A DNA stretch of 64,000 bases from an uncultured Ignavibacteriales bacterium (GTDB lineage: Bacteria; Zixibacteria; MSB-5A5; GN15; FEB-12), in NCBI GenBank assembly GCA_964544635.1, contig CAZJCK010000002.1:29388-93387 (forward strand), given 5' to 3'. The position numbers were made by a program, and so were the translations under genes. The notes under the pieces were generated by a model. The model ran no database searches. It saw only the letters and a program-made list of their open reading frames with translations, and had not been told where the DNA came from. This document shows positions 5,689 through 11,298 of the stretch, piece after piece (position 1 is the stretch's first letter; each line of letters starts with the position of its first letter).

Positions 5689-6960
5689 TCATGCACCGCC
5701 TCCCGGTGGCTGGCGGCGCGATCGCGCTCGGTAGCGGTAATCTAAACCGGTCTGGTCTTTTACCATTTGCGCAAGATGACGGCAGATCGTGCGGAAGTGG
5801 CGCCACTTCACATGGGTCAGGTTTTGCCCCATGATCGAGTCGGCATCAATACCGTTCACCGCCCCATCACCATTAAGACTGGCATCGATGGCCGCCCCGG
5901 CGTACTCATCGGGGTTGCCGAGATGATGCCCGAACTCATGGGCAGCCACGGCCAGTCGGGGTTCGGCCAAAAACCAGAGCGAATCGTTGGAACGAATGTT
6001 ACCTGGCGCAACGATGAGCGTGCCGGCCGAAAGGGCGTTTTTCTTTTCGAAACTGACATCGAATTCCGTCTGGTAGCGGCAGCACCAGTCGGCGCCCGAC
6101 TGACAGCCCCGTCGCTTGATATCGAACTTGTTGTTCCAAGTGGTGATGATGTTGTCACGCCATTGGGTAATGCGGCGGCGGTTGGGGGGGCTGTCGATAT
6201 TCCAGTCGGCAAACCGTTCCGGCCAGGTGCCGCCATACTGACAGGTGTAATTGTTTCCCTGCTTGTAGAAGCCGACACAAAAGTTGTTGCCGTCATGCAG
6301 GACGAATCTGCGCGGCAGGTTAACCCAGGCGTTGCCGTTCCAGTACTTGTTGCGTCCTCGAACCTGTTTCATCCACCAGTATGGCCCGCCCTGGACATTG
6401 AAGGCGGCAACAGCACCGGCGTTGCCCTGCGGCGCGCTGGCACCGAGATTGACTACCGACGCTCCCCATCCCTTGAGGTATTTGATATTGCTGCTGATCT
6501 TTACCGTCCGATCGTTGGTCGCGACATCGAAGTGCGAGCGGCTCTCATCGAAATGTGCCGACGCCAGGTCGGGCATCCGGCGCAACTGGAGCAGGTTCGA
6601 TGAGGCAGCAGCCTCGGCTACCAGGTCGGTATGTACTTTGAAGCGAATGTTGCCGTCGAGCTTGTCATCGGCCGCCCCGCGGGCATTCCAGATCGTATAG
6701 AGTCGTCCGCCGATGACGGCTGCCGGAATTTCGTCGAACTTGGTCTCGCTGCCGTCATCAGAAACAAAACAGACATCAATGCGAGCCGGTGTGATGGGCG
6801 GATGGCCACTGATGACGACCTCGATGGCGACCGCTTCACCGCAGCGCACGGTCGGCCGCAGCCACTGCGCCCGGCGCACCCGATAGTTGGCACGGCGGAA
6901 CAGCCACCGCACCCCGGTCGCGACTTTTCCTATTGTCCTCGCACCAGCACCGTTGCTCAT
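5689..6960 (-). CDS. Zinc metalloprotease-like protein (metzincin/snapalysin-type motif HEFGHHLGNPDEY); candidate T6SS effector
   Basis: 423 aa. AAHEFGHHLGNPDEY matches HExxHxxGxxD, and a possible Met-turn (ADSIMGQN) follows about 25 residues later. The central region is rich in Trp, Asn and Cys, and the N-terminus resembles a beta-sandwich. Its start overlaps the stop of the upstream gene (ATGA at 6957-6960). Confidence 0.65.
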   Translation of the reverse strand: MSNGAGARTIGKVATGVRWLFRRANYRVRRAQWLRPTVRCGEAVAIEVVISGHPPITPARIDVCFVSDDGSETKFDEIPAAVIGGRLYTIWNARGAADDKLDGNIRFKVHTDLVAEAAASSNLLQLRRMPDLASAHFDESRSHFDVATNDRTVKISSNIKYLKGWGASVVNLGASAPQGNAGAVAAFNVQGGPYWWMKQVRGRNKYWNGNAWVNLPRRFVLHDGNNFCVGFYKQGNNYTCQYGGTWPERFADWNIDSPPNRRRITQWRDNIITTWNNKFDIKRRGCQSGADWCCRYQTEFDVSFEKKNALSAGTLIVAPGNIRSNDSLWFLAEPRLAVAAHEFGHHLGNPDEYAGAAIDASLNGDGAVNGIDADSIMGQNLTHVKWRHFRTICRHLAQMVKDQTGLDYRYRARSRRQPPGGGA

Positions 6961-7865
6961 CCATTCTCCTCCGGATCAATAATGAACCGTCCGGCATTAG
7001 GAAAGTCGACCTCCATCTTCCCTGGCGGCAGTTCTTTCAGTCGCGCCCACCCTTCACTATCGGTCTTGCCGTCTTTTGTATTGCGGTCACCAAACCGTAT
7101 GGTAAAGTCCTGATCCGCCAGCGGCAATCCATCTTCATCCACAAACTGAAAGGCAGCATCATCACTGAAGGCGAGCAGGCCCGATGCCTGGTCATCGCGA
7201 CCATATTCCTTGTTGCCCGCTACGACCGTGAAGAAATATTTGGGCGGCTGGTAGCTGCCGCCGCGCGGCTCGAGATCGTCGTCGTCGGGGATGTCCTCGG
7301 TATTGTCGAAGTACTCAAACGCCCACTGCAGTTCCATGCGATTGTCCTTCACCATACCGTCCAGCGACAACACCTTGTCATGGGCGCCGCCGGCGTCATG
7401 TTCATACACCCGCACTTCCACGGTTTCACCGCTGTCGAGGCCGCGGATATCGGCGGTCATGATCACGATCTCGTCGCGCTTCACCTCTTCTTTGTCCCAC
7501 TTCAGGTTGCCTGCACTCACCATCGGTCGGACCGGAATCGGCAGCGACTCGCCGTCGAGCGAATTCTTGCTCAACTCCGCCTGCAGAATCACCTGGTCGC
7601 CCGGTTCGATATCCTCGGGAATGAGAAACGAACCGGAGAACTGGTTATTTTTGACGGTTCCCTTCACGCTACCCAGCTTGCTGCCGTTGAGCGATTTGCC
7701 GGTCACCTTGATCGGCGCACCGATGCCGACGCCCACCGTGCGTACCTGCCAGGGAGTCGATTGCCCGGCGTACGCAATCTGCGGCAACCAGCGGACGGCA
7801 ACAAGTTTCGCCTCCAGTTCGACCTTGTGTTTGCTGTTGACCCCTTTGGAGAAGCTGAGTTTCAC
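6957..7865 (-). CDS. Repeat-domain protein of unknown family sharing its C-terminal module with the PAAR protein; candidate adaptor or co-effector
   Basis: 302 aa, GTG start with a GAAGG SD. It has three W...G...V...YE-type beta-rich segments. Its C-terminus (PPKYFFTVVAG...SGLL...FVDEDGLPLADQ...GKTDSEGWARLKELPPGKMEVDFPNAG) parallels the PAAR protein tail. Confidence 0.6.
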   Translation of the reverse strand: MKLSFSKGVNSKHKVELEAKLVAVRWLPQIAYAGQSTPWQVRTVGVGIGAPIKVTGKSLNGSKLGSVKGTVKNNQFSGSFLIPEDIEPGDQVILQAELSKNSLDGESLPIPVRPMVSAGNLKWDKEEVKRDEIVIMTADIRGLDSGETVEVRVYEHDAGGAHDKVLSLDGMVKDNRMELQWAFEYFDNTEDIPDDDDLEPRGGSYQPPKYFFTVVAGNKEYGRDDQASGLLAFSDDAAFQFVDEDGLPLADQDFTIRFGDRNTKDGKTDSEGWARLKELPPGKMEVDFPNAGRFIIDPEENG

Positions 7866-7879
7866 GTTACCTTCACTCG

Positions 7880-9716: not shown

Positions 9717-10135
9717 CGCTCCGCCCTGGACCAGCCGCGGTCGTCAATCTGCTGCGATATTGACTCGCCGCTTTCGGGGTCCTCTTCCGGTCCGGCCCCC
9801 GGTTGGTCGGCCGGCTCTTTGCCGAACAGTTCGTACCCGGCGACGCATACCGGTACCTTCTCGACATCAGTGGGCACCGCCGATACCACCACCGCGGCGT
9901 CGAACTCGGGCAATTCCAGCTTGTACTCGCCGATCGGAATCTTGTCGACACTGACCAGACCGTCCTTGTCGGTAGTCGCTTCTATGCGTTCGGTTTGCCT
10001 CACCAGGACAACCTTGGTATCGGCAATCGGGACCGTACCGGAATTGGACAAGAGTAAAACCGAGATGTGCCCGGGCGGGAGAACAAAGAACTCCCGATTT
10101 TTCTGCTTGAGATAGTCTGAACGTGTTCGAGCCAT
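9713..10135 (-). CDS. Small protein with a carboxypeptidase-regulatory/transthyretin-like beta-sandwich and an acidic tail
   Basis: 140 aa. GTVPIADTKVVLVRQTERIEATTDKDGLVSVDKIPIGEYKLEL is the typical CarbopepD_reg/TTR pattern. The C-terminal tail is rich in Pro, Glu and Asp. Confidence 0.5.
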   Translation of the reverse strand: MARTRSDYLKQKNREFFVLPPGHISVLLLSNSGTVPIADTKVVLVRQTERIEATTDKDGLVSVDKIPIGEYKLELPEFDAAVVVSAVPTDVEKVPVCVAGYELFGKEPADQPGAGPEEDPESGESISQQIDDRGWSRAER

Positions 10136-10167
10136 GGTGTTGTCGTCGCCGCTACCGGCGGTATTGA

Positions 10168-11298
10168 TCAGTTTTCAAAGGGTGCACCGTGATCCGGGAA
10201 TTCAACCGCCCACGGTCCCGGTGGAACATTGTCGACCTTCGCCGCCCCGCCGCCGTCAAGCGTACCGCTGCGGACTTCGCCGCTGCACAGGTGCAACCGA
10301 TACGGTGCGTCGGCCAGCTCTTTGCCGTCGGTGTCCTTTAAGCTGAATTCAATGCGGGTGCGGTAGTCGAGCAAGCCCGATTCCCTGCGGGCGCCGCCAA
10401 CCTCGCAGACGAAGAAGTACCGCGGCACGTAATAGTTCGACAGTTTCGGCTCGGCCTCCGACGGTGGAGCGTCGCTCCACGGATACTGCCACTCCACTTC
10501 GATGGCATCGTCTTTCACCTTCGCTTCGATTTCGTCAAAGGGGCGGCGCCGATTGTTGGGGCCTACTTCGTAGATCTTCAGTTTCGCCGGCGTATTGTCT
10601 TCGAAGCCGATCAGTGCAACCTGCAGCTTGACCTTTTCGTCGTCCTTGATGCGATTGGTCGACCAGCGAATGTCGGCGATCCCCGTCAGCTCAATTTTGT
10701 GATCCCCCGACTCCACCATCGTCCGCTCGACTTTGCCGCCGAGCATGCCGCTCCAGCCGGTGTCCTTGGGGCCCTTTACGGTGTAGTTCAGGCCGGCGAT
10801 CGGTTTGCCCCCCTTGTCGACGACGGACACATTGAGAAAGTCGGTCTTCTGCGACTTGTCCTCGGTTTTGCCGGACTTTGCCTTGTCGTCCTTGACCTTG
10901 GTGTCGGCGCCCGCCTTGGTGTCGGCTTTCCCTTCTTTGACTTTCTGGCCACCCTGGCCGGCGCCACCGCCGCCACCCATACCGCCACCGCCGCCGGAGG
11001 TACCGATCATCACCTTGGACGCACCCTTCACAATCACGTCGGGAGGGCCGACGCACACGCACGAGTCGCCCACCGTAGCCGCCGGCAGTCCGGCAATCAG
11101 GACGGTCGGGACACCGGGACCAACGATCGGCCCGCCGACATGCGGGATCGGCGGGACAGCCGGTGTTTGCATCGGACAGGTGTGCATGTCCGTCAGGCGT
11201 GCCGCCGGCAGGCCCTCTATGAGCACGGTAGGGTTACCGACGACTATAACGCCGCCGTGAGCGGTGGTATCTCCCTGTCTGGCTGCCGGTCCGGGCAT
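10168..11298 (-). CDS. PAAR-domain spike-tip protein with Gly/Lys-rich linker and about 230-aa C-terminal beta-sandwich extension
   Basis: The N-terminal roughly 100 aa carry PAAR motifs (GLPAARLTDMHTCP, GLPAATVGDSCVCVG). A linker follows (SGGGGGMGGGGGAGQGGQKVKEGKADTKAGADTKVKDDKAKSGKTEDKSQK), and then beta-rich domains. ATG at 11298 with a GAGG SD. Confidence 0.85.
   Translation of the reverse strand: MPGPAARQGDTTAHGGVIVVGNPTVLIEGLPAARLTDMHTCPMQTPAVPPIPHVGGPIVGPGVPTVLIAGLPAATVGDSCVCVGPPDVIVKGASKVMIGTSGGGGGMGGGGGAGQGGQKVKEGKADTKAGADTKVKDDKAKSGKTEDKSQKTDFLNVSVVDKGGKPIAGLNYTVKGPKDTGWSGMLGGKVERTMVESGDHKIELTGIADIRWSTNRIKDDEKVKLQVALIGFEDNTPAKLKIYEVGPNNRRRPFDEIEAKVKDDAIEVEWQYPWSDAPPSEAEPKLSNYYVPRYFFVCEVGGARRESGLLDYRTRIEFSLKDTDGKELADAPYRLHLCSGEVRSGTLDGGGAAKVDNVPPGPWAVEFPDHGAPFEN

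Follow-up and report, generated by a model that had tools for sequence, protein, structure and literature searches.

The window analysed here, a 64,000-nucleotide (nt) stretch of DNA in which all coordinates below are positions, includes a type VI secretion system (T6SS) gene cluster in which a PAAR tip protein of 376 amino acids (aa) and a separate 302-aa protein carry the same module of beta-sandwich domains. The repeated unit is an immunoglobulin (Ig)-like domain (D1/D2 type) followed by a transthyretin (TTR)/CarboxypepD_reg-like domain (D3). We hold with high confidence that the module is real and linked to the T6SS. Homology between the copies, their domain architectures, a conserved gene order, linkage to the T6SS, co-variation with cargo and gene fusions were all observed, and we favour, with moderate confidence and from sequence data, a reading in which the module serves as a spike-loading adaptor or delivery module of the T6SS, a variation on the TTR-extension theme with an added Ig-like domain. 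We infer that the module would bind its partners physically and by a particular surface, that the 302-aa protein would be secreted, and that a neighbouring protein would act as its chaperone.

Sequence and structure of the repeated module

By BLASTP, residues 204–371 of the PAAR protein align with residues 115–292 of the 302-aa protein (78 bits, E=9e-21; the 178 aligned residues are 25% identical). This formal alignment contains all the segment pairs that the original prediction had matched between the two proteins. In the PAAR protein a D2 hidden Markov model (HMM) matches residues 207–313 (i-E 2.7e-21) and a D3 HMM residues 316–370 (2.1e-18). A related unit had also been proposed at the N-terminus of a 423-aa metallopeptidase encoded next to the 302-aa protein; there the pairwise signal is weak (E=0.003 against the PAAR protein, no match against the 302-aa protein) and the profile signal is solid. 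A shallow profile gave 87%. A profile of 31 of 80 peptidase homologues, those keeping the N-terminal domain, was then compared by hhalign: D2 matched over 88 columns with a probability of 97.1% (E=7e-11), D1 with 96.7% (E=3.6e-10) and D3 with only 0.35%. The empirical null for these values was provided by 46 other cargo families, which reached 0–21% in the same test.

The transthyretin or carboxypeptidase-regulatory fold expected for the last part of the module is supported by relatives of D3, which match CarboxypepD_reg at up to 5e-33; among 111 relatives, 31 match this family (best 2.1e-25). The D3 profile also matches a prealbumin-like Bap domain in the PDB (7e-6), while the D3 stretch of the window PAAR protein itself has no Pfam match. 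Several copies had gone unnoticed earlier. The first 112 residues of the 302-aa protein form a further Ig-like domain (D1 against D2, 87.5%, E=3.6e-6 by hhalign), residues 155–203 of the PAAR protein form an extra, weak TTR copy (D3 HMM i-E=0.004) that is clear in at least 27 orthologues with a D3-D1/D2-D3 architecture, and domains of the module type also occur in the neighbouring 140-aa and possibly 471-aa proteins. D1 and D2 are homologous; D3 is unrelated to both.

An AF2 model of the 302-aa protein, built from an alignment of 29 sequences, is all-beta and contains three sandwiches (pLDDT 92.3, pTM 0.81). D1 begins with a conserved unstructured peptide, F-x-K-x-T-D-x-x-H, with no strands before residue 20 (pLDDT 73–85), and D2 consists of an Ig core with a conserved insert and the pattern W...YEhD.DG.HD...WEFeY...PxYFF...SGLL. 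The protein has no transmembrane segment (maximum KD19 0.72). Searches with the window proteins and the 111 relatives returned no Pfam, NCBIfam or PDB sequence match for D1/D2; this domain type has no Pfam or NCBIfam model, and the sources name the D1-D2-D3 proteins "hypothetical". A Foldseek comparison of the model with PDB and viral fold libraries found only generic tandem Ig/macroglobulin proteins and phage structural Ig-like proteins (TM ~0.27), and gave no lead to function.

The family is large. With a threshold of E<=1e-3 an exhaustive profile search yielded 2,338 cluster representatives, of which 102 also pass E<=1e-30, and 55 of the best 150 matches have the architecture of the 302-aa protein. 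A word-indexed protein search had given 2 matches for the 302-aa protein and 5 with the 29-sequence profile; these low counts were set aside in view of the thousands retrieved by the exhaustive search. Almost all of the architectures counted have D3 directly after D2, either once or as (D2-D3)n with n up to six, and D2-D3 is thus a true evolutionary unit that travels as one block. With 2,338 representatives, among them a gammaproteobacterial VgrG island and proteins that have no T6SS genes within 10 kb, the term "lineage-specific" used in the original prediction proved too narrow.

The two genes that follow the PAAR gene also bear on the module. The 140-aa protein is a single D3-type domain, with Pfam matches to SpaA (4e-4) and CarboxypepD_reg (2.4e-3) that both lie below cut-off. 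Residues 13–76 of the 471-aa protein match the D2 core (hhalign 76.9%, E=2.1e-5; D1 0.6%, D3 0.07%), so that this protein may tentatively be said to begin with a D2-like core. A resemblance between the N-termini of the 471-aa protein and the peptidase was considered and dropped (1%, not significant), and the 471-aa protein has no Pfam, NCBIfam or PDB sequence match. Within a joint MAFFT alignment only, a 2,313-aa (D2-D3)x6 protein (P0003) lines up at its N-terminus with the ~130 N-terminal residues of the 471-aa protein. The 471-aa gene has no adjacent immunity-like gene, and is preceded by the single-TTR 140-aa gene.

Sister loci, variable slots and fusions

A locus scan of one genome per GTDB species, with an 8-sequence alignment as query, identified 139 confirmed relatives of the 302-aa protein in GTDB representative genomes, and the best 80 of the 139 were used for the analysis of sister loci. 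These 80 loci belong to Zixibacteria, Ignavibacteria, Krumholzibacteriota, Latescibacterota, GN15 and unclassified FCB-group metagenome-assembled genomes (MAGs), that is, to at least five FCB-group lineages. They share a conserved order: the PAAR-extension gene, one or two variable genes, a DUF1795-like gene, D1-D2-D3, one or two further variable genes, and then ClpV-N, ClpV-C, TssB, TssC, Hcp, VgrG and TssE, the PAAR extension in this order being D3-D2-D3. ClpV/TssBC is found in 38 of the 44 loci that have at least 8 kb downstream, and the PAAR-extension gene lies upstream in 35 of the 39 that have at least 7 kb upstream; in the window as in the sister loci it runs in the operon direction of ClpV, TssB and TssC. 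The genes further downstream in sister loci encode Hcp (Pfam TssD), a VgrG of ~595 aa without an extension, and TssE. By tblastn the DUF1795-like gene is present in 75 of 81 loci, and wherever inspected it lies directly upstream of the 302-aa gene. Outside the main group, a gammaproteobacterial MAG has VgrG, DcrB and two genes followed by D1-D2-D3, and another locus has VgrG, TssE, TssF, TssG and ClpV followed by a D1-D2-D3 fusion and PAAR. The module is thus tightly linked to T6SS loci across sister genomes, as had been proposed.

The genes that follow the two carriers differ greatly between genomes. The first gene after PAAR (slot 1) falls into 13 families, and the first gene after D1-D2-D3 (slot 2) into 36 families among ~62 loci. 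The 140-aa and 471-aa pair of the window recurs in only 4 sister loci, and the peptidase with its 329-aa neighbour in one. Second genes of slot 1 in sister loci start with signal- or lipoprotein-like sequences, a trait of periplasmic immunity proteins; together with the polymorphic first genes, this indicates that the slots are effector-immunity cassettes with periplasmic targets. In locus L082 the gene after the PAAR extension (1830–2498) matches Pfam TseH, a Vibrio cholerae T6SS effector family, which supports slot 1 as an effector slot; the same locus has a D1-D2-D3::PG_binding_1 peptidase fusion.

The original prediction left it open whether the module marks cargo or adapts it to the machine. 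A marker would be a tag on effectors, like MIX, FIX or RIX, that is recognised by a receptor of the machine, and the peptidase, which starts with a D1/D2-type domain, and possibly the 471-aa protein look like tagged effectors. In other genomes D1-D2-D3 is found at the N-terminus of polymorphic enzymes, and the coexistence of stand-alone and fused forms is the pattern used to recognise MIX-like domains (PMC10673891). When 49 cargo families were tested for an N-terminal D1, D2 or D3, however, matches were found in only 3: the peptidase (D2), the 140-aa protein (D3) and an 805-aa LysM protein (D3). The remaining 46 gave the 0–21% cited above, so a shared domain of this type on all cargo was rejected. 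The module sits on the conserved carriers (the PAAR extension and the 302-aa protein) and not on the variable proteins, and even within the peptidase family it is optional. The marker half of the proposal, literally true of the peptidase, therefore fails as a general rule and we regard it as very unlikely; the loading or adaptor half finds indirect support.

Such support comes from co-variation of the carriers with their cargo. Pairwise identity of each carrier domain was regressed on TssC identity, and cargo labels were permuted 5,000 times. For D3 of the 302-aa protein, identity was 0.579 in pairs with the same slot-2 cargo and 0.458 in pairs with different cargo, a difference reached by 0 of 5,000 permutations (p=0.0002), while D1 (p=0.11) and D2 (p=0.065) did not significantly track slot-2 cargo. 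In the PAAR protein both D2 and D3 track slot-1 cargo (p=0.0002), and neither the PAAR domain (p=0.10) nor the first TTR domain (p=0.27) does so significantly. As a cross-control, D3 of the 302-aa protein was compared with slot-1 cargo and gave p=0.12. The value for the Eag-like (DUF1795-type) protein was p=0.06, short of significance. The permutation test leaves the linkage between a carrier's 3' end and its neighbour in place.

Fusions of the module are widespread. D1-D2-D3 is N-terminal in proteins of 590–1,266 aa whose C-termini include PG_binding_1 with an M74-like peptidase, metallo-beta-lactamase, amidohydrolase and OmpA-like domains, and in two loci such an enzyme fusion occupies the place of the free 302-aa gene, after the PAAR and DcrB genes. 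Fusion partners of D2-D3 are PAAR (9 of 111 matches), an Hcp domain and gpD-like proteins; D1-D2-D3 is also joined to a DcrB domain (Eag-like), and the module is carried by Mu gp43-like and gpD-like baseplate proteins. It therefore occurs alone, as a C-terminal fusion to spike proteins, and at the N-terminus of polymorphic toxins. Taken together, the fusion and co-variation patterns are those expected if the unit links effectors with the T6SS projectile and an Eag-like protein handles it.

These observations suggest the following model. This T6SS, whose TssC and Hcp are of Bacteroidetes-type Pfam families, displays the module on two conserved carriers, a PAAR tip with a TTR-D2-D3 extension and a free D1-D2-D3 protein. 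Each carrier gene directly precedes a slot of genome-variable effector and immunity genes, here with overlapping stop and start codons. The carriers would be held on the spike, the first by its PAAR domain and the second by some other contact, in which the Eag-like protein or the conserved peptide at the start of the 302-aa protein may take part; the effector encoded next door would be bound by the C-terminal TTR-like end of each. For the window this means that the 140-aa and 471-aa proteins would be the load of the PAAR extension and the zinc peptidase that of the 302-aa protein, with the signal-like 329-aa partner as immunity protein. In other genomes, carrier and cargo are joined in one polypeptide, D1-D2-D3 followed by the enzyme.

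Several points weigh against this adaptor model. The 302-aa protein lacks a PAAR domain by which to reach the spike. Transmembrane helices, the known binding partners of Eag chaperones, are absent from it. Several distant members of the family have no T6SS genes within 10 kb, among them the 2,313-aa (D2-D3)x6 protein, arrays of zinc-ribbon and TTR domains, and an amidohydrolase fusion. The alternation of the Ig-like domain with peptidoglycan-binding domains in the peptidase family hints at a role in the target cell. At the fold level the domains are ordinary Ig, macroglobulin and TTR sandwiches that could serve other purposes, and recombination of cassettes with a breakpoint inside the carrier gene would give the same co-variation at the 3' end without any binding.

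A rival explanation is a passive structural extension: the domains would act as spacers or as decorations, making the spike tip longer or shielding it in the manner of Ig decorations on phage tails, and co-variation would reflect linkage only. The generic Ig/macroglobulin and phage structural matches from Foldseek, the presence of the module on Mu gp43-like and gpD-like baseplate proteins, and the long (D2-D3)n arrays are all compatible with such a role, and breakpoints inside the carrier genes would yield the co-variation observed. Yet one would not expect a decoration to exist as a conserved free gene that neighbours a chaperone gene and is coupled in translation to an effector, or to be fused repeatedly to the N-termini of enzymes. 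Moreover, the co-varying part of the PAAR protein spans two domains, with no significant co-variation in the TTR and PAAR domains next to it. We therefore consider a purely structural role improbable.

One way in which the adaptor model could work is suggested by the cargo itself, and we offer it as a speculation that is unlikely to hold. The Eag-like protein and D1-D2-D3 might constitute a general-purpose carrier of Bacteroidetes-type T6SSs that has so far gone unrecognised. Its TTR end might accept nearly all effectors by capturing a short, disordered, basic N-terminal peptide in which a beta-strand comes after [S/T]-G, so that effectors otherwise unrelated would have a linear secretion signal in common. 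An [S/T]-G dipeptide is present within the first 45 residues of 25 of 29 slot-2 family representatives against 148 of 365 control open reading frames (ORFs) (41%; Fisher p=2e-6), and in internal windows of the same slot-2 proteins in 13 of 29 (45%); this pattern is a post hoc observation made on uncurated start codons. In the peptidase the N-terminal [S/T]-G residues are predicted to be disordered. It was also observed that slot-2 effectors (after the 302-aa gene in L002–L081; in the window, 6826–6960), unrelated as they are, share a basic N-terminus with [S/T]-G, often followed by a beta-strand-like pattern.

A further observation concerns slot 1. Its commonest cargo is a protein of 830–1,374 aa, found in L004, L006, L008 and ~23 other loci, with no Pfam match in the one member scanned; by eye, it has a motif ILEMEDVLFH..NSAVMMPE near the N-terminus and then an OmpA-like-looking region. 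Its partner of ~400–440 aa has a lipoprotein-like N-terminus and a PQQ/BamB-like beta-propeller. The two look like a widespread, undescribed effector-immunity pair.

Genes of the window

The ORF map shows that all genes between 106 and 11298 are on the minus strand in a single operon-like run, in the 5' to 3' order PAAR protein, 140-aa, 471-aa, 138-aa, 302-aa, 423-aa HExxH and 329-aa proteins, split ClpV, TssB and TssC (Table 1). Overlaps of 4–8 nt occur at the 140/471, 302/423 and 423/329 junctions. The genes beyond 11298 are housekeeping genes, and the PAAR gene is therefore the start of the T6SS cluster. Its PAAR domain is N-terminal, with a Pfam PAAR_motif score of 82 bits against a cut-off of 27. 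A prePAAR reading of the sequence AARQGD..H at its N-terminus was rejected, this being an ordinary first PAAR repeat with no transmembrane segment after it. Spurious long ORFs (up to 458 aa) run antisense to real genes on the plus strand at 7291–8309 and elsewhere, as is expected at ~59% GC, and length-greedy ORF calling in the window prefers an antisense ORF over the 302-aa gene.

Table 1. Positions of the carrier, cargo and T6SS genes and of their domains in the window.
Feature	Coordinates	Strand	Basis
PAAR tip protein, 376 aa: PAAR domain, Gly/Lys-rich linker, TTR-like, D2, D3	10168..11298	-	Pfam PAAR_motif E=3.3e-23; D2/D3 HMMs
PAAR domain proper, aa 1-100	10999..11298	-	Pfam and NCBIfam PAAR matches, aa 8-99
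First TTR-like domain of PAAR protein, weak, aa 155-203	10690..10836	-	D3 HMM i-E=0.004 at 156-177
PAAR-protein D2, Ig-like, aa 204-313	10360..10689	-	BLASTP against 302-aa protein; D2 HMM
PAAR-protein D3, TTR-like, aa 314-371	10186..10359	-	BLASTP; D3 HMM 2.1e-18
140-aa single TTR-like protein, first slot-1 gene	9713..10135	-	Family profile against D3, 97%, E=1e-11
471-aa protein, putative slot-1 cargo, start overlaps 140-aa gene by 4 nt	8301..9716	-	D2-core match, hhalign 76.9% (tentative); shared by 4 sister loci
138-aa DUF1795/DcrB (Eag-family) chaperone-like protein	7880..8296	-	Pfam DcrB E=1.1e-5
302-aa carrier protein, three beta-sandwiches D1-D2-D3	6957..7865	-	AF2 model; family alignment
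D1 Ig-like domain of 302-aa protein, aa 1-112	7530..7865	-	Alignment; D1 against D2, hhalign 87.5%
D2 Ig-like domain with insert, 302-aa protein, aa 114-235	7161..7526	-	BLASTP, alignment, AF2
D3 TTR-like domain of 302-aa protein, aa 238-292	6990..7154	-	Co-variation with cargo
423-aa HExxH zinc-peptidase-like putative effector, slot-2 cargo, start overlaps 302-aa gene by 4 nt	5689..6960	-	HEFGH, aa 341-345
N-terminal Ig-like domain of metallopeptidase, aa 26-127, D1/D2 type	6580..6885	-	Deep-profile hhalign; AF2
329-aa protein, signal-like hydrophobic N-terminus, overlaps peptidase gene by 8 nt	4707..5696	-	KD19 max 1.95, residues 15-33
Split ClpV (two ORFs), TssB, TssC	106..4633	-	Pfam Clp_N/AAA/AAA_lid_9, AAA_2/ClpB_D2-small, T6SS_VipA, TssC PF17541

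The 138-aa protein encoded just before the 302-aa gene scores 26.0 bits against Pfam DcrB, whose cut-off is 27.2 (E=1.1e-5). All 32 of its 32 orthologues examined match DcrB (best 1.5e-18), and its family profile matches EagT6/PA0094 at 2.9e-5 and SciW at 0.04, so that by its orthologues and its profile it belongs to the DUF1795 (Pfam DcrB) family. Hydropathy (KD19) revealed no transmembrane segment in the window cargo or in the 302-aa protein; the helices expected of Eag clients are absent from them.

In the 423-aa protein the HEFGH motif at residues 341–345 is invariant in 31 homologues and lies inside a helix (337–346) of the AF2 model (pLDDT 83.1), in which residues 28–127 are all-beta with pLDDT >90 and follow ~21 disordered residues. 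Among curated peptidase families there were only motif-length M6/M7 matches below cut-off, and in a Foldseek search of the model the Ig-like domain dominated and left the catalytic domain unclassified. The catalytic domain (5689–6558; P0171–P0237) represents a sizeable unannotated family, with 80 matches whose E-values go as low as 1e-130. Certain Cys and Trp positions are invariant in the family, and the tails of some members are hydrophobic and resemble Gly zippers. The N-termini of this family are interchangeable, with PG_binding_1, OmpA, LysM, CarboxypepD_reg or PAAR in place of the optional Ig-like domain. By sequence, the catalytic domain is probably a T6SS toxin domain that acts in the periplasm, and the 329-aa protein, whose gene is co-inherited with the peptidase in L001, is likely its periplasmic immunity partner.

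The exchange of the Ig-like domain for PG_binding_1, OmpA or LysM raises another explanation, that the sandwiches bind peptidoglycan, glycans or the envelope of the attacked cell and position enzymes after delivery. Fused D1-D2-D3 proteins often carry OmpA or PG_binding_1 domains together with cell-wall enzymes, and many of the cargo partners look periplasmic. Such a role would leave unexplained the fusions to PAAR, to Hcp and to a cytoplasmic-type chaperone, as well as a free 302-aa protein that has no enzyme. In addition, the fused proteins retain their own peptidoglycan-binding domains beside D1-D2-D3, so there is no simple replacement of one by the other. For these reasons a target-side function appears unlikely to us, and we continue to prefer the adaptor model.

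The ClpV genes of the window (2034–4633, minus strand) form two ORFs of 501 aa (Clp_N and the first AAA domain) and 364 aa (the second AAA domain and D2-small), joined by a stop/start overlap TGATG. The split is kept in ~50 related loci and is therefore natural and not a sequencing error; 6–8 loci have a single ClpV of 840–878 aa. TssC matches Pfam PF17541, and Hcp of sister loci (L005, L089) matches TssD PF17642, with no match to the classical models; we take PF17541 and PF17642 to be the models of the Bacteroidetes T6SSiii. A 2026 review confines T6SSiii to Bacteroidota, against which range these matches occur in loci of Zixibacteria, Ignavibacteria, Krumholzibacteriota and Latescibacterota. 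A DUF4280 PAAR-like reading of Cys-rich N-termini in P0008–P0011 was not confirmed by Pfam and is not claimed.

Relation to known systems

The known routes of effector recognition, namely the TTR and helix-turn-helix tails of VgrG, the DUF4123, DUF1795 and DUF2169 adaptors, and MIX, FIX and RIX, come almost entirely from Proteobacteria. A PAAR-TTR class was reportedly described by Shneider et al. in 2013. As to how T6SSs recognise effectors that share no signal, this locus type points to a different solution in the barely studied T6SSs of Zixibacteria, Ignavibacteria and their kin. The solution would be a portable Ig-plus-TTR unit that both extends the PAAR tip and is encoded as a free carrier, in either case ahead of a swappable effector slot.

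One close parallel is with TTR extensions of spike proteins. The TTR extension of VgrG1 of enteroaggregative Escherichia coli (EAEC) binds Tle1 (PMC10433429), a TTR extension has been proposed for Pseudomonas aeruginosa VgrG2a/2b (PMC7376260), and TTR-like domains are among listed T6SS signatures (PMC11925235). In these cases, as here, a small TTR sandwich is C-terminal on a spike component and encoded just upstream of the presumed effector; D3 is of that fold type, and specificity resides in the extension (PMC10433429, PMC7376260). Unlike these extensions, the TTR domain here is preceded by an Ig-like domain with which it moves jointly as D2-D3, it is on PAAR and not on VgrG, and it also exists on a free protein.

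The module shares with MIX, FIX, RIX and PIX its occurrence alone, on spike proteins and at the N-termini of toxins, a pattern of "multiple encoding form" that Wang et al. (2023) used to nominate recruitment domains (PMC10673891). It differs from MIX, FIX and RIX in that the sequence and fold families are unrelated (no Pfam or NCBIfam match in the region or in 111 relatives) and in that the module is the invariant partner. Neither the list of Wang et al. nor a 2026 review of accessory factors (PMC13584744) covers this family, and the review has no TTR, Ig-like or sandwich entry. As in Eag pairs, a DUF1795 gene lies directly upstream of the presumed client in a T6SS locus, and a DcrB::D1-D2-D3 fusion exists. 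The clients known for Eag proteins carry prePAAR together with transmembrane helices at the N-terminus (bioRxiv 10.1101/2020.10.28.356139), whereas the 302-aa protein consists of beta-structure throughout and lacks any hydrophobic segment. If the adaptor model is correct, the Eag family would gain a client without transmembrane helices.

The T6SSiii of Bacteroides, which is of the same broad T6SS type, offers the nearest functional parallel. The Bacteroides fragilis effector Bte3 has three N-terminal beta-sandwiches (20–134, 135–236 and 273–411) and a toxin domain; it depends on an adaptor, Ate3, and on the PAAR-like Pte3, and the T6SS does not function without it (PMC13402684). Three N-terminal sandwiches are likewise seen in the AF2 model of the 302-aa protein (pLDDT 92), of sizes similar to those of Bte3, a likeness drawn from the published description only. 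In the complex of BtpeA-BtaeB-BtapC with VgrG (PDB 9jg8) one chain superposes by Foldseek on the Ig-like domain of the peptidase at 2.3 A over 125 columns, and no sequence similarity to the 9jg8 chains was detected. In contrast to Bte3, the sandwiches here are encoded apart from the toxin, which is not on the same polypeptide; fused relatives exist, none shown to have the open beta-barrel domain of Bte3. The adaptor is of the DUF1795/Eag type and not the 11-strand open barrel of Ate3, and the tip is a canonical PAAR protein and not a DUF4280 protein.

If the adaptor model is true, new families of effectors and immunity proteins could be read off from the genes after the carriers (36 and 13 families in only 80 loci), and a D1/D2 profile could be used to find T6SS cargo islands in phyla without cultured members. 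What is new compared with the known systems is a TTR-type spike extension that is combined with an Ig-like domain lacking a Pfam or NCBIfam model and that has a second copy, a free carrier paired with an Eag-like chaperone, in phyla whose T6SS is unstudied. The model would also connect this locus to the effectors of Bacteroides in which N-terminal beta-sandwiches are structural parts of the spike.

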